DNA of 64,000 bases from Truepera sp. (lineage in GTDB: Bacteria; Deinococcota; Deinococci; Deinococcales; Trueperaceae), in NCBI GenBank assembly GCA_965218435.1, contig CBDCKW010000009.1, positions 1,696,001-1,760,000 of the forward strand. The letters run 5' to 3'. Position 1 is the stretch's first letter. Each line of letters begins with the position of its first letter. Below are positions 56,326 through 63,812 of the stretch, piece by piece. Both the position numbers and the translations under genes were made by a program. A model generated the notes under the pieces. It was not told the DNA's origin. It saw nothing but the letters and a program-made list of their open reading frames with translations, and did not search any database.

Positions 56326-57387
56326 ATGTTTTCTTCTCCCGACAGACCCACTCGCAAAGCCCGTTGGCCCGGAACCGCGCTGCTGTGGGGCACACTCGTG
56401 CTCGCCGGTATGGGCGCAGGGCTCGAGTTCGCCCGTGCGGGCATAAGCGGAATCGGCCTCATCCTCTCATGTGTCGCCGTTTTCAACCTCACCGCCCTCC
56501 TCAGTACTCACAGCTGGCGGCAACCCCTTAGGGCCGTAGCCCCGTACTTGTACCTTACCCTTTTGCTGGTGGGTTGGTTATACGCCTTTTATTTTGGCCG
56601 TTCGTCCGGGCTGGCGCAGCAGCTTATCCTTACGACGGTCCTGCTGTTACCGGTCCTTTACGCCCAGTTTTTCGACCGTCTGCCGGGGCCACAAGCCCTT
56701 TTGCAGGCTGGCACCGTCTTGCTCTCTTTTGCGCTCCTCAGCTTGCCCCACGCGCTTACGACCATAGCCGGTCCAGCTCTTTTTGACGGGCTCGGCTTTT
56801 TAGGTTTGTTTACGGTAGCTAATATTTTGCTCTTGACTTTTATCAGTGCGCCGCTGTGGACAGACGGCGAACTCGCCCATCTGCGCCGCGACGCCGCTTG
56901 GTTTCAGCGGCTGGCTCACCACGACTTTTTAACCGACCTACCTAACCGGCGGCAGCTCGAGCAGGTGCTAGGGGTCAGCCTCGCGCAATCGTCCCGTAGC
57001 GGAGTACCTTGCGCCGCACTGGTGATTGACATCGACCATTTCAAACGCCTTAACGACAGATTTGGTCACCCGGTCGGCGATAAGGTCCTCCGCGAAATCT
57101 CACGTCGCTTGCAAAACGAACTGCGGGCGGGCAGCACTTTGGGCCGCTGGGGGGGCGAAGAGTTTGTGGTCGTCGCGCCGCAAACCGAGCGCCACGAAGC
57201 GCAGCAGCTCGGGGAGCGGCTGCTCTACGCTGTTCGCGCCGATCCTATCGCCGGTGAGCACCTCGTCACCGTCTCCATCGGGATTACGAGTTACCGCCCC
57301 GGTGATACCCCGGAAACGCTGATCGCCCGCGCCGACCGCGCGCTTTACCGGGCCAAACAAGCCGGCCGCGATAGGCTCGCAGCGTAA
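56326..57387 (+). CDS. Membrane-bound diguanylate cyclase
   Basis: Several TM helices, DFLTDLPNRR, DIDHFKRLND, RWGGEEF and ADRALYRAK. Confidence 0.92.
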   Translation: MFSSPDRPTRKARWPGTALLWGTLVLAGMGAGLEFARAGISGIGLILSCVAVFNLTALLSTHSWRQPLRAVAPYLYLTLLLVGWLYAFYFGRSSGLAQQLILTTVLLLPVLYAQFFDRLPGPQALLQAGTVLLSFALLSLPHALTTIAGPALFDGLGFLGLFTVANILLLTFISAPLWTDGELAHLRRDAAWFQRLAHHDFLTDLPNRRQLEQVLGVSLAQSSRSGVPCAALVIDIDHFKRLNDRFGHPVGDKVLREISRRLQNELRAGSTLGRWGGEEFVVVAPQTERHEAQQLGERLLYAVRADPIAGEHLVTVSIGITSYRPGDTPETLIARADRALYRAKQAGRDRLAA

Positions 57388-57488: not shown

Positions 57489-59936
57489 ATGGTGTGGACG
57501 CAGAGACTCCTCACAAAACTTCACGCCCATCCCGGTCCTATCTTGCTCGAAGGGGGTGAGGCTTTTGGCGCACCCTTTTTGATCGAAGCCCTCAGCCACG
57601 CCCAAAGAGTCGCTTGGTTGCAGCTGACGCCCACTGAAGCGAGTGACTCGGTAGCTATCGGAAACCGCCTTGCAGACGCTGTAAACGCGGCGTTGGAGGC
57701 GAACTTTTTACCCCACGCCTTGCCTTTTAGCTACAGCATCGAGGTGTTGAGAAAACGCCTCCCGCTCCTCGGCAGTTTAACGATTGTCTGCTCAAACGCC
57801 GACTACACACCGCTCTTTCGTGACTCTTTACTCGAGCTCTCCGAAGTCGGCGCGAAAATTATTTTAATTACCAGTGGTACGACCCCTTCGTTTACAGGGC
57901 TGCATCTCCGGCAAGAAGACCTCGCCCTCACCCCGGAAGAGGCCGAACTTTTAGCGGGCCATTTTCTTAGCGAAGCCGAGCAGCGCACCCTACGGCTTTC
58001 ATCGGGAGGTGCCTATTTAACCTTTATGTGCAGCGTCTGCCGGTTGCGGGGAATGGCGCTGCCGCACGTTCCTTCACCAAGGGGGGCGCTCACCGCGCCG
58101 GGCGACGAAACGCTGGTGTCACCGGTGGTGCTGCTCGAGGTACTGCAAAAGCTCGGACGCTACGTCGAGGCGCTCGAGCTCGCCGTAATGAGCGTGCCTG
58201 AGCGGGTCGCTGAACTTATCGAAGAGGCGGGACCGGCGTATCAAGAGCGGGGACTACTTGCGCGTCTACACCTCCTTTTAGAAAGCTTAGACGATCCCTA
58301 CCAGAAAGCTGAAAAGGTGCTCGAGTGGCGGTTAGTTGCAGGCTTTGATCAATCAGATTACCGTCACATCATTGCTGTTATTAAAGCTCACTTAGAAGCT
58401 AACGAAGCGCCGGAATTACGTGCTCGTTACGCGGGTGTTTTTCCAAACTCAGAAGAAAGCTTCGTTCAAGCACAGCGTGCGGCAGCAGCAATGACAACGC
58501 CACTTACTCTATATCAGCTCGGTCGGTTGCACCGGAATGCAAAAATAGGTGTAACGATCTTACATCAGAGTGTCAAGCTTGCTGAGTCACTTGGACGGCA
58601 CTACGATGTCACCCGTAATGCAAGAGCATTGGCTGAAAGCCTTAACTATCTCGGTAGATTTCATGAAGCCGCTAACTGGAGTAACTGGGCATTACAAACC
58701 TTTACAAAAAAAGGATTACAGGACGGTACTGCGCGGCTACGCCTTCTTTATATCTACGCAACAGCCCATACCATTGTAGACCGTACTAACGGTTTGCAGC
58801 TTCTTCTCTTGGAAGCGAAAGATGCTGCTGACTCTGCGGAACTCGGTATAGCTACTGACATCCGGACTACGCTGGCAAATCTCGAGCTTGTACTAGGTAA
58901 CCTTAACGAGGCAGAAACTCTGGCCGCTGAAAACTTTGCACAGAGCCCACGCTGGCGACTTGGGGACTCTGCCGTACCACTTGTACGGATTTTACTCGAG
59001 CAAGGAAAATTTGATGAAGCCCTCGCCAAAGCTCAGTACGCTGTAACCTTGACCGACGGTGAGGATGATTTCGTTACACTCCCAGCATCTTTGGCACTCG
59101 GTATGGTTTATGCAGCGCAAGACCCCAAAGCGGCTCGAGAACATCTGCTTAAGGTACTCGAGGCACCCGACATCGAAGCGTCTTTCCGAGTGACGGCAGC
59201 CCTGCACCTGCTCAAAATTGGGGTACTCCGTTTCAGTGAGCTTGACGCGACTTTGCAAGAGATTTTGAAAGAGCTCTCACCGACCGGTTTTCGGCTTTTC
59301 TGCGGTCCCGAAGACGACTTTATCGGTGTCTGGAACATGCTCTCAGCTCAGCATACGCCTTTAAGGATCAAGGTTTTGGGCAAAGCAGAAGTGTGGCTAA
59401 ACGACAAACGTCTCTCGCTTAGCGCACGCGCTTTAGAAACACTCGTGCTGCTCGCGCTGCACCCCGAAGGTCTGATCCCCGAAGTGCTGCACAGCTACCT
59501 TTATGACAACGAAGACACAACGCTCGTGGCACTGCGCTCAGCCGTTTCCCGCTTGCGTGTACTCGTGCCCATCAGTGCTCACCCCGAGCCGTACCGCATC
59601 ACCGTGCCGTTTACCTTTGATGCAAACGACTGCGAGGCCGCGATTGTAGCCGGAGATATAAGAGCAGCCCTCGAGCTCTACCGCGGACCACTCCTGGAGA
59701 AAAGCGACGCACCCGGTATCCGTGAGGCGCGGCTTTACCTCGAGGAAAGGCTACGGCAAAGTACACTCCACTCCGGCGACGCCGAGGCGCTGCTACCGCT
59801 AGCAGAAACGCTTAGAGACGACCTCGAGCTGTGGCAAGCAACGCACGCGGCGCTCCCTAGCAGCGACGTTCGGCTGCCCCTTGTAAGGGCGCAGCTCCAC
59901 AGGGTAACCCAAGAACTGCGCCCAACCTATAATTAA
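57489..59936 (+). CDS. Large transcriptional activator: degenerate MalT-like STAND N-terminus, TPR-like helical sensor, C-terminal wHTH-BTAD
   Basis: ILLEGGEAFGAP (degenerate P-loop), VAWLQL, EDLALTPEEA; TPR-like LAESLNYLGRFHEA, LGNLNEA, QGKFDEA; LRIKVLG...LVLLALHPEG...LRSAVSRLR...ALELYRGPLL. Confidence 0.8.
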   Translation: MVWTQRLLTKLHAHPGPILLEGGEAFGAPFLIEALSHAQRVAWLQLTPTEASDSVAIGNRLADAVNAALEANFLPHALPFSYSIEVLRKRLPLLGSLTIVCSNADYTPLFRDSLLELSEVGAKIILITSGTTPSFTGLHLRQEDLALTPEEAELLAGHFLSEAEQRTLRLSSGGAYLTFMCSVCRLRGMALPHVPSPRGALTAPGDETLVSPVVLLEVLQKLGRYVEALELAVMSVPERVAELIEEAGPAYQERGLLARLHLLLESLDDPYQKAEKVLEWRLVAGFDQSDYRHIIAVIKAHLEANEAPELRARYAGVFPNSEESFVQAQRAAAAMTTPLTLYQLGRLHRNAKIGVTILHQSVKLAESLGRHYDVTRNARALAESLNYLGRFHEAANWSNWALQTFTKKGLQDGTARLRLLYIYATAHTIVDRTNGLQLLLLEAKDAADSAELGIATDIRTTLANLELVLGNLNEAETLAAENFAQSPRWRLGDSAVPLVRILLEQGKFDEALAKAQYAVTLTDGEDDFVTLPASLALGMVYAAQDPKAAREHLLKVLEAPDIEASFRVTAALHLLKIGVLRFSELDATLQEILKELSPTGFRLFCGPEDDFIGVWNMLSAQHTPLRIKVLGKAEVWLNDKRLSLSARALETLVLLALHPEGLIPEVLHSYLYDNEDTTLVALRSAVSRLRVLVPISAHPEPYRITVPFTFDANDCEAAIVAGDIRAALELYRGPLLEKSDAPGIREARLYLEERLRQSTLHSGDAEALLPLAETLRDDLELWQATHAALPSSDVRLPLVRAQLHRVTQELRPTYN

Positions 59937-59977
59937 CCGACTCACCAATTAGTGCGGCCCAGCTTGCGAGTAAAGTC

Positions 59978-60163
59978 TTATGACGCCCGTAGTGATTGTG
60001 CCTGAGCGTACTCGCGTGGCGAAGATGGCCCGGCCGAACTTACCGCTTCATGCGCGTACACGGCTTCAATCAACTCAACTTCACGTAAAGCGACAAGCTC
60101 ACCGACACAGCTAAAGCGCCCGGTTTCAGCCAGGGCTTTTTTGGCTTCATCTCTAGTCATCAT
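59978..60163 (-). CDS. Small hypothetical protein (61 aa, MMTRDEAKKALAETGRF...)
   Basis: Strong AAGGAGGA RBS directly upstream of ATG 60163. Confidence 0.55.
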   Translation of the reverse strand: MMTRDEAKKALAETGRFSCVGELVALREVELIEAVYAHEAVSSAGPSSPREYAQAQSLRAS

Positions 60164-60230
60164 AGTCCTCCTTATCAAAATGTAGACGCTACTGTGACGC
60201 AGGGATGTTGCAATACGCACAGCGGAAGCT

Positions 60231-60262
60231 GTAACACTGCGGCAACAGAGGTTTTGTACAGT
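60231..60262 (+). promoter_or_regulatory. Putative activator-dependent promoter of the peptide gene
   Basis: GTAACAC-N4-GCAACAG-N8-TACAGT: heptamers 11 bp apart, 8 nt before a -10-like hexamer. Confidence 0.5.
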
Positions 60263-60288
60263 TAAAGACAGTTAAAGGAGGCAACAAC

Positions 60289-60405
60289 ATGTTCAAAAAA
60301 GCCCTTATCATCGGTATGATTTGCTTAAGCGTAGGTAGTGTCGGCTTTGCAAGACCTAGGACCGGGGACCCTGGCTGTATCTCTCCTATGTCATCACGTA
60401 AATAG
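60289..60405 (+). CDS. 38-aa secreted pro-peptide MFKKALIIGMICLSVGSVGFA-RPRTGDPGCISPMSSRK (below ORF-track cutoff)
   Basis: AAGGAGG RBS 7 nt upstream; basic n-region, hydrophobic h-region and G-F-A cleavage site. Confidence 0.8.
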   Translation: MFKKALIIGMICLSVGSVGFARPRTGDPGCISPMSSRK

Positions 60406-60488
60406 CGTCTTAATATCCACGAGAAAGGTCACGGTCACACACTATCAAACCTGAACCCTCGCGAGCAGTTTCCCAAACCCGTGTTTGT

Positions 60489-60520
60489 AGGTGAGCGTGA
60501 ATACGACTTCGCGCTCACCT
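60489..60520 (+). terminator. 13-bp hairpin downstream of the peptide gene
   Basis: AGGTGAGCGTGAA-TACGAC-TTCGCGCTCACCT (one G-U pair); no U-tract. Confidence 0.45.
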
Positions 60521-60729
60521 GACGCGTGTGTGAAGGTAGCCTCTATCTATTGCCCGAAAACGGATCGTCGTTTTACCGGGAGGTGTCACTTGTGTGCGTT
60601 CAAGTAGACTTTACAAACCGGGTGAGGCATTTCGGGAAGCAGCGGTGTTTTGGTTGGTAACAGCCCGTTTTGGTGCGTCACTGGTCAAACTGAGTTAATC
60701 AAAAGCTTGTGCGACTTTGCCACACGTCC

Positions 60730-61062
60730 TCTTGTGAAGAAACGCGGCGGTCGCTGCGCGTGTCGTCAGGTTTGCTTACCTCGTTAGAGAGTAGGCGGTT
60801 ATCTGGGATTGACCGGACGCCTCGAGCAGCTCGGCCTCGCCGCATACCTGCACGACTTGGAAAAACCCAGCTTATCAGCTGCGCTACTGCAAACACCCGA
60901 ACAGTTGACGACAGACGGATGGAAGCAGATGAGGCGGCACCCCGTGAGGGTGAACGTCTTTTAGGGGTGCCGCCGCCGCTTTTGGGCACAGTTATAGCGC
61001 AGCATCATGAACGGCTCGACGGGTCGGTGACGATCTACGACCGTCTTTCGGTGCATCTGTGA
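60730..61062 (+). pseudogene. Decayed HD-GYP (c-di-GMP phosphodiesterase) gene
   Basis: LGLAAYLHDLEK, QLTTDGWKQMRRHP and IAQHHERLDGS occur in order but not in one continuous reading frame; the GYP segment is missing. Confidence 0.8.
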
Positions 61063-61161
61063 TCCAGATAGAACACTTGCCGAGTTGCGCTACCGTAACA
61101 GCGTGTTTGAGCTAGGGGCTGTCGCCGCTACTTTTGCAGAGATGACAGGAACATTTCCAGT

Positions 61162-62598
61162 TTAAGTCTCGCGGTAACGCCTCAACGCCTCCTGGTAAAG
61201 CTCACTCTGGGCGGGCTGAAAATCGTGATCGCTTTCCAGCTGCGCCAACGACGCTGCCTGCTCCGCAACGCCCAAACCTTGCAAGGCTAGCAGCGCCGCG
61301 CCGTAAGCCGGTCCCTGGCTCTGCTTGGGCCGGGTGAGCGGTAGCCCCAGTACATCTGCGGTAAGTTGCAACCACATCTCCGAACGAGCCCCGCCACCGG
61401 TGGTAAAGGCTTTGGTCAGCGGCGCGAGCGGTGTGATGATGTCGAACGCGTCACGGAGGCTGAAGGCGACGCCCTCGAGCACCGACCGCACCAAATCAGC
61501 TTGCGTGGTGGCTAAGCTCAGACCCGTCCACGACCCGCGCAGATCAGGGTCTAAGTAAGGCGTGCGTTCCCCGGCCAGGTACGGCCTAAACGTGACGCCG
61601 TTGGCTCCCGGTTGAGAGGTCGCTGCTTCTTGCGTCAGCTCGTCAAACCTCACCCCCGGCCTTAAGGTATCGCGGTACCACTGCAAACTTCCGGCGGCGG
61701 CGAGGGTAACGCCGAGAAGGTTGTAACCGCCGTCCGCGTGACAAAAGAGGTGGACGCGCCCCTCCGGGTCGGGGGTCGGTGCGCCTAGTGGCGCGAAAAC
61801 GACGCCCGACGTGCCGAGGCTGACGCTGCCCACGCCGGGGGTAAGGCTCGAGAGTCCCAGCCCTATCGCAGCAGCGGCGTTGTCCCCGGCCCCGGCAACG
61901 ACCGGTAAATCTTTCGGCAAACCCGTTTGCCGGGCTAATTCGTCAGTCAGTTGACCGGTGACCTCATGCGACGCGACGATCTCCGGGAAAAGGTCGGTAG
62001 AGAGCCCCAGCGCCCCCAACACCTCAGCGTCCCAAACTTTTTGGGCGATCTCAAAGCAGTTCGTCCCCGACGCGTCGGTCGGTTCAGCGGCAATCACCCC
62101 GGTCAGTTTGAAGCCCAGATAATCTTTAGGTAAGAGCACGTGGCGAGTACGGGTGAAGTTGTCGGGCTCCGCTTGTCTGAGCCAGAGCAGTTTGGGCAGC
62201 TGAAAGCCGGTAATCGCTGGATTGCCGGTGCGTGCGACTAACGTTTCTCGAGGTACGGCGTCAGAAAGTTCTGCGACCCCCGAGCCGGTACGTTGATCGT
62301 TCCACAAGAGAGCAGGCCGGACGACCTCGCCGTGCGCGTCTAAGGGCACCATCCCGTGCATCTGCCCGGAAAGCCCGAGCGCCACAATGTCGTGCCCGCC
62401 GAGTTTTGCAGTCAACTCTTGAAGGGCTGCCACCGTCCCGGCAAACCAGTCTTCGGGATTTTGCTCCGTCCAACCGGGGCGCGGCGTCAGGAGCGGGTAG
62501 CTGCGGGTACTTTCCGCGACAACTGTGCCCGCCTCGTCAACGGCGAGTACGCGGACGCCGCTCGTGCCGATATCCACACCTAATGACAGCGCCGTCAC
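61162..62598 (-). CDS. xylB: Xylulokinase (FGGY family)
   Basis: [36 protein letters not shown] and GERTP. Confidence 0.93.
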
Positions 62599-62744
62599 GC
62601 CGTCCCCGCCCTTAAAGGTAAGCGAACTACTTTATTAGGGGCGACAGCTAACCTTACTACCGACATAATTCTCCCGTCTTGTACAAGCAAGTCTTGTGCA
62701 GTTGGGCCGATCATACCTGTTTGGGGACACTCCCATAAACCGGG

Positions 62745-63812
62745 TCAGGCCCGGTAACGCTGCGCCGGCAGCGCCCGGAGCCGTGCCGCCGCGTCCTCAG
62801 CCGTCAGGTCGCGCTGCGCCTCAGCCAACCACTCGTAGCTGGCGACGAATTTCTGTACGCTAGCTGAGCGTAAGAGCGGCGGGTAGTAGTGCGCGTGCAG
62901 CTGCCAGTGCCGCACGTCACCTGCGCTACCGGTAGGGGCACCGTGCCACCCCGAGCAGTAGGGAAACGACGTCTCAAAAAGGTTGTCAAAACGGACCAGC
63001 ATGATTTTGAGGATGTCTGCCAGCGCGTCTCGCTCAGTAACCGTCAGGTCGGGGAGACGCAAAACATGACGTTTGGGGAGGACCAAGGTTTCAAACGGCC
63101 AGTACGCCCAGTACGGCACTACCACGAGCCAGTGGTCGTTTTCGGCGACGGTGCGCTCGCTCAAGCTGCTCTCTCTCTCTCTATAGTCAACCAGCAGCGG
63201 ACTACCGTGCTGCTCAAAGTAACGTTTTTGCTGCGTGTCTTCTAGCAAAGCTTCATTCGGCAAAAAGTCGCTCGCCCAAATCTGCCCGTGGGGGTGCGGG
63301 TTCGACGCCCCGACCATCGCTCCTTTGCTCTCAAAAATCTGCACCCAGCGGTAATGTTCACCAAGCTCGAGAATCTGCGTCCCCCACAGATCAACGACTT
63401 TACGAATGGCCGAAACGTCCAGCTCAGCGAGCGTCAGGTCGTGGCGCGGCGAAAAACAGATCACGCGGCAGAGCCCCCGAACGCTCTCACCCTGAAAGAG
63501 CGGGTCGGCGCTGCCGCTAGTAGCACTGTGCTCCTCCGGCGTATCCGGCAAAAGTGCGGCGAAGTCGTTGGTAAAGACAAACGTGTCTCGGTACTCGGGA
63601 TTGTGGGCGTCGCCAGCGCGTTCGTTACCGGGGCAGAGGTAACAGGCCGGGTCGTATTCGGGCCGCTCGTTCCGGCTGGGCGCTTCAACTTTGCCCTGCC
63701 AAGGCCGCCGGTTGCGCTGCGGTGAGACCAGCACATATCCGCCGGTCAGCGGGTTGAGGCGGCGGTGCGGACCGGTGGGCGTGAAAATGTCTAGCCGTTT
63801 GTCTGTAGCCAT
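62745..63812 (-). CDS. galT: Galactose-1-phosphate uridylyltransferase
   Basis: [31 protein letters not shown] and [10 protein letters not shown]. Confidence 0.96.

Follow-up and report, generated by a model that had tools for sequence, protein, structure and literature searches.

The stretch of DNA described here (the window) comprises 64,000 nucleotides (nt) of a Truepera sp. genome (GenBank assembly GCA_965218435.1, contig CBDCKW010000009.1, positions 1,696,001 to 1,760,000 of the forward strand) and carries a candidate peptide-signalling cassette consisting of a large regulator gene, a very small gene for a peptide predicted to be secreted and several associated elements. The regulator gene (57489-59936, plus strand) encodes 815 amino acids (aa), as judged by the open reading frame (ORF) call and by domain and fold matches. 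The pre-peptide gene (60289-60405, plus strand) encodes 38 aa and is preceded by the ribosome-binding site (RBS) AAGGAGG at 60275-60281, 7 nt before its ATG. Both ORFs and this RBS had been listed in a first-pass annotation of the window, and their positions were confirmed. That annotation placed the peptide ORF beside the regulator on the same strand; both genes do lie on the plus strand, but a gene for a conserved 60-aa protein (59978-60160, minus strand, RBS AAGGAGG at 60167-60173) intervenes. The 60-aa gene is oriented divergently to the 38-aa gene, 125 nt away, and converges on the regulator gene. Within this space lie two predicted promoters, each with repeats like those of SARPs (Streptomyces antibiotic regulatory proteins) and a -10 element: one at 60179-60212 (minus strand) for the 60-aa gene and one at 60230-60262 (plus strand) for the peptide gene. 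A 13-bp stem-loop without a U-tract (60489-60520, plus strand) stands between the peptide gene and a broken gene for an HD-GYP phosphodiesterase of cyclic di-GMP (c-di-GMP), which has an internal stop and a frame change (60647-61023, plus strand). Upstream of the regulator, an ORF with a GGDEF motif encodes a membrane protein (56326-57387, plus strand). The first-pass annotation had overlooked three of these elements, namely the gene for the 60-aa protein, the operator repeats and the phosphodiesterase gene.

Relatives of the cassette were gathered as 131 loci, made up of 30 from a search of the genomes of the family, 80 further near-full-length matches, 1 metagenome contig and 20 loci from other families. 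One of them (L008) comes from an unpublished genome; it is counted among the 69 and 71 loci given below, makes up one row of an alignment and supplied 2 of the 13 training sites of the operator matrix, and no conclusion hinges on it. Matches to the regulator were found in 113 of the 128 genomes of Trueperaceae and, phylum-wide, in 177/299 genomes at 1e-20, representing four of five families. A protein search returned 72 relatives, 3 of which have a source name beyond 'hypothetical protein', all Truepera or Trueperaceae; the receptor of P0044 (source label Truepera radiovictrix) is 58% identical. In a FastTree tree of 126 of the 131 loci, from which L008, L047, L093, L125 and L131 were excluded for their shortness, carriers of the 60-aa gene group in a single clade (69 rows, support 100). 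The clade rows without this gene are L013, which is cut by a contig break (the missing part is L138), and L052, in which the stretch is masked. Two arrangements occur. In type A, which comprises the window, its genus and one other, the pair of peptide and 60-aa genes lies downstream of the regulator gene, and in type B it lies upstream.

Signal peptides were detected throughout by an own hydrophobicity rule and not by SignalP. By rule, a divergent signal-peptide ORF lies 124-254 nt from the 60-aa gene in 64/69 loci, and the same rule selects 13/527 control genes of the window genome; when an RBS of GGAGG, AGGAG or better is required, the figures are 63/69 and 1/527. Among the five loci missed by the rule, L049 has no sequence at this place and the other four ORFs were found by eye (that of L063 starts with ACG). 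The first-pass annotation had staked its proposal on homologous regulators also being flanked by a small secreted ORF, which is nearly always the case in the window's clade. The flank scan of 1 kb that it suggested found a signal-peptide ORF shorter than 61 aa with a strong RBS at 44 of the 57 clade regulators for which both flanks are available, against 2 of the 527 control genes. Outside the clade, 26/60 paralogues have a different signal-peptide ORF, picked by eye and nearly always convergent on the end of the regulator gene.

A chance ORF or an artefact was considered for the peptide gene and rejected on the basis of a genome census, the control genes and the pattern of codon substitutions. 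The census of the 4.8-Mb genome, which called for ATG, an RBS of AGGAGG or better, a length of 28-60 aa and a signal-peptide-like N-terminus, returned this ORF alone. Residues 1-21 of the pre-peptide are signal-peptide-like by the rule given above, with a basic N-terminus, a hydrophobic core and an Ala at the likely cut; residues 22-29, ending in D-P-G, are the likely mature core, and residues 30-38 form a tail. The length of 38 aa is within the 10-100 aa described for precursors of the RRNPP family, and most relatives have 38-69 aa, with multi-copy precursors of up to 116 aa. In codons 2-21, comparison with two close relatives gave 4 synonymous and 0 replacement changes in one case (L003) and 8 and 2 in the other, and in the core and tail the comparison with L003 gave 4 synonymous and 10 replacement changes among 17 codons. 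Over 19 pairs of type-B peptides the pooled pS was 0.27 and the pooled pN 0.10. Judged by these counts the peptides evolve under purifying selection, and the core is the variable part of the precursor. The motif D-x-G ends 53/56 type-B peptides (two of the remaining three are masked by N) and is present in 5/8 type-A peptides, where it is followed by the tail. Eight precursors, distributed over four branches of the receptor tree, contain 2 to 5 or more tandem cores, and the unit that is repeated is for this reason the likely mature form. Two similar signal-peptide ORFs lie in tandem behind one regulator in L075. Also, the control set of the window genome contains one further signal-peptide ORF, of 45 aa and with a Cys-Cys pair, within 1 kb of a control gene.

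The structure model of the regulator has a mean pLDDT of 91. Residues ~1-207 form a MalT-like NOD without the Walker A lysine, residues ~210-620 a helical arm and a superhelix of tetratricopeptide repeats (TPR), and residues ~619-814 a C-terminal SARP domain, that is an OmpR-type winged helix-turn-helix (wHTH) plus BTAD. The N-terminal part (residues 1-207) matches the MalT NOD 8bob with Z 15.1 and a root-mean-square deviation (rmsd) of 3.1 over 205 aligned residues. The first-pass annotation had described this part as a degenerate STAND N-terminus; the Walker A pattern GxxxxGK[ST] occurs in the first 70 residues of 0/131 homologues, and its absence makes an ATP cycle unlikely. Residues 299-621 match MalT domain III (1hz4) with Z 21.7 and rmsd 4.6 over 317 aligned residues, and residues 242-595 match the phi105 Rap protein with bound peptide at Z 18.8; by fold, MalT thus stands above Rap for the TPR part. 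Lower values were obtained with NprR (Z 15.8), AimR (Z 14.8) and PlcR (Z 13.3). The TPR_12 match (E=1.9e-10) agrees with the TPR content required of RRNPP receptors. Among 45 close homologues, variation is greatest in the TPR part (entropy 1.1-1.2 against 0.7-0.9 elsewhere), although repeats may vary for other reasons. The C-terminal assignment to wHTH-BTAD, made at first pass, stands by fold, residues 619-814 matching the SARP domain of AfsR (Z 15.1) and EmbR (Z 13.9), and by matches to OmpR/PhoB proteins at ~630-700 (best E 6e-4 in a sequence search of the PDB), but the Pfam match to BTAD has an E value of only 0.11. The best Foldseek match of the regulator is PH0952 (6mfv, TMq 0.43). No RRNPP receptor was present among the 52 PDB sequence matches of the regulator with E up to 1, and neither the regulator nor the two small proteins are covered by an NCBIfam family. 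This combination of a MalT-like body and a SARP domain is a scaffold different from that of RRNPP receptors, as proposed earlier.

Several paralogues of the regulator differ in their surroundings or composition. The window genome encodes a 576-aa paralogue without the NOD part (C9:3460099-3461829, minus strand), located upstream of a 572-aa lipoprotein-like ORF. Two regulator paralogues lie in tandem in L123, and beside the peptide-less paralogues of L124, L128 and L129 stands a 415-aa ORF that has an HxxEH motif and, by eye, resembles an M16 peptidase. L021 and L022 have near-identical regulators and peptides in genomes of two genera (g9 and g19), which points either to a transferred cassette or to misbinned sequence.

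Each of the two promoters between the small genes consists of a heptamer repeated at 11 bp, a spacer of 9-10 nt and TAnnnT, once per direction in mirror image. On the peptide side these are TGTAACA (60230-60236) and GGCAACA (60241-60247), 9 nt and TACAGT (60257-60262). On the side of the 60-aa gene they are TGCAACA (60212-60206) and TGCGTCA (60201-60195), likewise with a period of 11 bp, 10 nt and TACATT (60184-60179). The repeat plus -10 element was found on the peptide side in 57/64 loci, on the 60-aa side in 51/64 and on both sides in 47/64; in 20 shuffles one side was matched in a mean of 0.35 (maximum 2) and both sides never. In a scan of the genome with a matrix of 13 sites from seven relatives, the peptide-side site ranks first (26.1) and the 60-aa-side site third (23.4), and three shuffles reach 21.9. 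The accessible text of a report on SARP promoters gives a repeat spacing of 11 bp with the last repeat 8 bp from the -10 element (PMC10936776), and the geometry of the predicted intergenic repeats matches that of SARP promoters. Across five groups, the heptamer varies together with the recognition helix of the wHTH when read by eye and uncorrected for kinship. One other site of the genome scores above the shuffles (C5:393821, 24.6 against their maximum of 21.9), and no gene downstream of it stands out as a target. Another, at C9:910919, scores 19.5, below the shuffles, and precedes a 634-aa ORF (C9:910919-912857, plus strand) whose start is PAS/LOV-like by eye; it is given as a lead only.

Modelling of the receptor with its peptide, another check suggested at first pass, was carried out with the relative L066 (receptor residues 205-640 and precursor residues 19-48), chosen because its peptide ends in the conserved motif. 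The pair scored an ipSAE of 0.80 and the best of 3 controls 0.02; the score mark applied is reached by 116/157 solved complexes and by 2/215 mismatched pairs. The runs share at least 35% of contacts, with a partner pLDDT of 43-46. In the model the peptide is placed in the TPR groove, where its terminal Asp and Gly lie against the residues corresponding to R313, Q343, R346 and R376 in the window protein, the predicted pocket. All four are kept in 71/71 clade members including the window, in 0/26 peptide-linked paralogues and in 0/34 peptide-less paralogues. The last of them, the arginine at the C-terminal Gly of the peptide, is kept in 23 of the 26 other peptide-linked paralogues and in 4 of the 34 peptide-less ones. 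Receptor column 317 (window numbering), a predicted contact, best tracks the second-last residue of the peptide: Ala or Ser occurs with Val in 16/16 cases, and Thr with Ala or Pro in 25/26. The co-variation between TPR core and peptide that the first-pass annotation had proposed to look for is weak once kinship is considered (see below). The complex model is a prediction and supports binding of the peptide in the TPR groove.

The same data bear on an alternative in which the peptide is only a regulated product, such as a matrix component, an antimicrobial or a RiPP-like compound (RiPP, ribosomally synthesized and post-translationally modified peptide), while a small molecule is what the regulator detects with its MalT-like TPR. 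In its favour, MalT domain III is the top match of the TPR part (Z 21.7), the operators mark the peptide gene as a target and not the peptide as a ligand, and in the sister clades L019, L112, L116, L119, L120 and L122 the peptide gene follows a radical SAM/SPASM or B12 radical SAM gene. A modifying enzyme beside the precursor, the arrangement expected of a RiPP, is thus found in sister clades, but in the window's clade a phosphodiesterase gene stands behind the peptide instead. The modelled contact of D-x-G with conserved arginines, the loss of the C-terminal arginine from most peptide-less paralogues and the variability of the TPR part also speak against this alternative, which is considered quite improbable. 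Among these paralogous loci, which are of the Deinococcus type and some others, the radical SAM/SPASM gene lies directly before the peptide gene in L019 and in the four scanned loci of L116-L122, an MsnO8-type LLM oxidoreductase gene precedes the radical SAM gene in both loci tested, and the peptide gene of L112 is located behind a gene of the RiPP C-methyltransferase family TIGR03975 (B12 radical SAM). The radical SAM-linked peptides may be modified signals or may belong to peptide-controlled RiPP clusters.

The ORF behind the peptide gene was assigned at first to EAL in 47, to HD in 4 and to trypsin-PDZ in 1 of 59 loci, with no family for the remaining 7. By profile search, EAL was found in 54/56 type-B loci, the other two having no sequence there, and HD-GYP in 5/9 type-A loci besides the remnant of the window. 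The EAL consensus lacks the usual DFGTG loop and keeps the acidic and lysine positions that are presumably catalytic; the EAL proteins are predicted to be active phosphodiesterases. The HD-GYP remnant of the window is 47% identical to an intact gene at the same place in L002. One contig of sequencing run X1 spans 60463-61200 without any difference from the window, and the break in the gene is therefore not specific to the assembly, though X1 may represent the source sample. The hairpin that the first-pass annotation placed after the peptide ORF is present at 60489-60520, where it precedes the broken gene, but it lacks a U-tract and was not called as a terminator, and a role as intrinsic terminator was rejected. 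The 141-nt stretch containing it folds at z -2.1 and is not a genome-wide repeat, and L002 and L003 have a stem with a different loop at its position. Another hairpin, with a U-run and z -3.3, lies at 60112-60146 (plus strand), within the bounds of the 60-aa gene, which is on the other strand. The regulator transcript may terminate there and would in that case be antisense to the 60-aa gene where the two overlap. Beyond the phosphodiesterase gene the cassette is bordered, in the interval 61162-63812 (minus strand), by two ORFs named by eye from their translations, one like a sugar kinase (478 aa) and one like a galactose-1-phosphate uridylyltransferase (355 aa). The sugar kinase-like ORF adjoins the cassette in L003 and L111 as well.

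The 60-aa protein is predicted to fold into a helix, a beta-hairpin and a helix. Its family is present in 58/101 other genomes of Trueperaceae and in 0/197 genomes outside the family. Pfam matched no family in more than 1/53 of its members, a PDB sequence search gave no match and the Atlas no usable one, and the best fold match has a Z of 2.5, from a model with pLDDT 68. A likeness to excisionase-type winged helices was considered and not confirmed. Among 7,994 candidates there was neither a longer form nor a fusion, which is weak evidence, and 148 of the 150 representatives listed are 49-106 aa long. By analogy with AfsS for AfsR, one might guess that the protein is an effector or feedback protein. 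An orphan second copy, 53% identical over 43 aa, is located at C9:418755-418883 (minus strand) of the window genome, behind a transporter-like gene and with no regulator nearby.

Its restriction to the clade and the family, together with its own operator, is compatible with the 60-aa protein being, in place of the peptide, the partner of the regulator (an anti- or co-activator), the peptide acting on another sensor such as a membrane GGDEF protein. A membrane GGDEF gene flanks five type-A loci: apart from the window, a GGDEF-motif ORF is found in L002, L003, L004 and L111, and the gene may be part of the type-A module. However, these are just 5/131 loci within flanks of 1.5-3 kb, 26 peptide-linked paralogue loci have no 60-aa gene, and the complex model supports contact between peptide and receptor. 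This alternative as a whole is regarded as highly improbable. A role of the 60-aa protein as partner and a role of the peptide as ligand of the regulator can both hold.

Sequencing runs X1 and X2, which represent one sample, were compared with the window as assembled contigs, whose depth is not a copy number. One contig per run matches 60283-60345 and 60421-60492 of the window, with 89 other letters in place of the 75 at 60346-60420, and rejoins the window sequence before the hairpin. The depths in X1 and X2 are 26 and 188 for this second allele and 41 and 192 for the form of the window. When read in frame by eye, the second allele keeps Ala21, Arg22, Arg24, Thr25 and Gly29 and is changed at positions 23 and 26-28, where the Asp of position 27 is lost and position 28 is Val. 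Further departures of contigs from the window occur in the TPR region near 58357-58432, where the depth drops to 42 and 206, and one of them reads Ala at 317. The contigs would fit a second pair of peptide and receptor; no contig joins the peptide and TPR variants.

These variants are relevant to a further alternative with the same parts and the same binding, in which the peptide stays private to the cell: after its release to the periplasm the same cell would take it back in, and it would serve as a timer or report on export, proteolysis or diffusion. The first-pass annotation assumed a diderm host, and an Omp85 protein encoded in the genome is in keeping with a diderm envelope; a peptide exported by Sec would hence reach the periplasm first. 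For possible uptake, 16 family-5 solute-binding proteins are present (proteins of this kind also occur in 11/14 control genomes), and all of the sequence evidence fits a private peptide as well. On the other hand, the cores diverge fast between close relatives (10/17 codons replaced between the window and L003), which a private loop would not need, and the second allele beside that of the window in the same sample is the kind of diversification that a kin-specific signal would need. That some precursors carry several cores in tandem suggests that the quantity of peptide is under selection. A private peptide is considered unlikely.

The 38-aa ORF probably encodes the precursor of a short signalling peptide, for which the 815-aa protein would serve as cytoplasmic receptor while also acting as a SARP-type transcription activator. 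In the proposed scheme Sec would export the peptide, trimming would leave about eight residues (22-29, with D-P-G at the end), and after re-uptake these would bind in the TPR groove. Once loaded with peptide, the regulator would bind the paired 11-bp repeats at the -35 position of both back-to-back promoters and turn on three genes: that of the peptide, that of the 60-aa protein and the downstream c-di-GMP phosphodiesterase gene, which is of the EAL or HD-GYP kind in relatives and broken in the window. In relatives, c-di-GMP would probably fall in a density-dependent manner. Export, processing, uptake, DNA binding, co-transcription of the phosphodiesterase gene and action between cells are inferred steps, and activation by the peptide is somewhat favoured over inhibition. 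The first-pass proposal of an analogous peptide-signalling system is supported by the conserved peptide ORF, the purifying selection on it and the binding in the TPR groove predicted for the pair of a relative, but the cassette departs from the RRNPP signature in two respects given below. Chances are judged about even for the fuller picture of an independent peptide-pheromone system with an ATPase-dead MalT-derived STAND/SARP receptor, an exported D-x-G peptide in a bacterium with an outer membrane, self-induction through mirror-image SARP boxes, lowering of c-di-GMP and competing alleles in one population.

A number of points weigh against the signalling scheme. The evidence on every member of the system comes from sequence and models, and the peptide would have to cross or avoid the outer membrane. 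MalT, the best TPR match, has a sugar as its ligand. Outside the clade, no candidate peptide was seen for 34/60 paralogues. With its HD-GYP gene broken, this genome lacks the main output. The type-A peptides, to which that of the window belongs, are less regular, and the tail past the core would need C-terminal trimming. The operator rule was drawn up after the motif had been seen, and the training sites of the genome-wide matrix came from close relatives. Among the 45 close homologues from the protein collection, R346 is kept in 27 and Q343 in 40, a weaker conservation than the 71/71 seen in the genome loci. The complex was folded for a type-B relative and not for the window pair, with a partner pLDDT below 50, and since solved complexes of TPR proteins with peptides exist, part of the pass may be due to likeness. 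The covariation is not independent of the model, which was fed with own alignments; on the tree it amounts to 6 independent pairs with a median p of 0.06 (never in the opposite direction), for a column picked after the data had been seen, and 5/8 variable peptide positions have no predicted contact as their top column.

A literature search found no description of the cassette; its scope left out most subscription papers and all supplements, including that of RRNPP_detector, which could bear on novelty. Peptide quorum sensing through TPR receptors is described, in the accessible text of PMC10075063, as a trait of Bacillota, and the RRNPP literature found is, by title and abstract, all on Gram-positive bacteria. 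MalT and Deinococcus are not mentioned in the part of PMC12700828 that is available, and 10.1101/2024.03.06.583649 concerns, as far as its available part goes, mycobacterial LuxR proteins and not this system. A TPR protein of Deinococcota, C3a198 (Mrub_1490, 'TPR protein'), is known as an accessory family of type III CRISPR systems, and the accessible text says nothing of peptides (PMC6546367). The cassette was set beside C3a198 by description only and differs from it in that no CRISPR gene was identified next to the cassette of the window.

The regulator resembles the STAND activators MalT and PH0952 in its NOD fold, TPR sensor and C-terminal DNA-binding domain, but unlike MalT it has no Walker A motif, a SARP domain in place of the LuxR helix-turn-helix, and a predicted peptide ligand. 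With the SARP activators (AfsR-afsS, EmbR) the cassette shares the SARP fold, 11-bp repeats just upstream of the -10 element and a small target gene nearby. However, SARPs are described as carrying the SARP domain N-terminally and AfsR as being controlled by phosphorylation and nucleotide, with no peptide, in the available part of PMC10936776. The order is NOD-TPR-SARP in the regulator and SARP-NOD-TPR in AfsR, and the spacer after the heptamer is 9-10 nt instead of 8 bp. If the proposed ligand is correct, a class of ligand would be named for large SARP/STAND regulators, and peptide signalling would be tied directly to c-di-GMP turnover. With a candidate ligand of 8-13 residues, an operator and pocket residues named, the system is readily testable.

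The RRNPP(A) systems (Rap-Phr, NprR-NprX, PlcR-PapR, AimR-AimP) are like the cassette in having a small pre-peptide with a Sec-type signal (predicted by sequence for the cassette) beside a cytoplasmic TPR protein, and in a peptide gene that is likely controlled by the receptor. The combination of a receptor, a peptide and a small third gene recalls aimR-aimP-aimX. The cassette differs in its receptor, which has 815 aa and carries a NOD at the N-terminus and a SARP domain at the C-terminus, in the third gene between receptor and propeptide, and in its Deinococcota host with Omp85, its likely c-di-GMP phosphodiesterase output and its multi-copy precursors. According to the accessible text of PMC10075063, the RRNPP signature includes a receptor of 250-500 aa and directly adjacent genes; the cassette deviates on both counts and is for this reason not filed as an RRNPP member, and detectors that need such a receptor length and adjacency would miss it. 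It likely works like RRNPP, and if so it would represent a second receptor scaffold, in Deinococcota, for a design that either evolved again or spread onto a STAND/SARP chassis.

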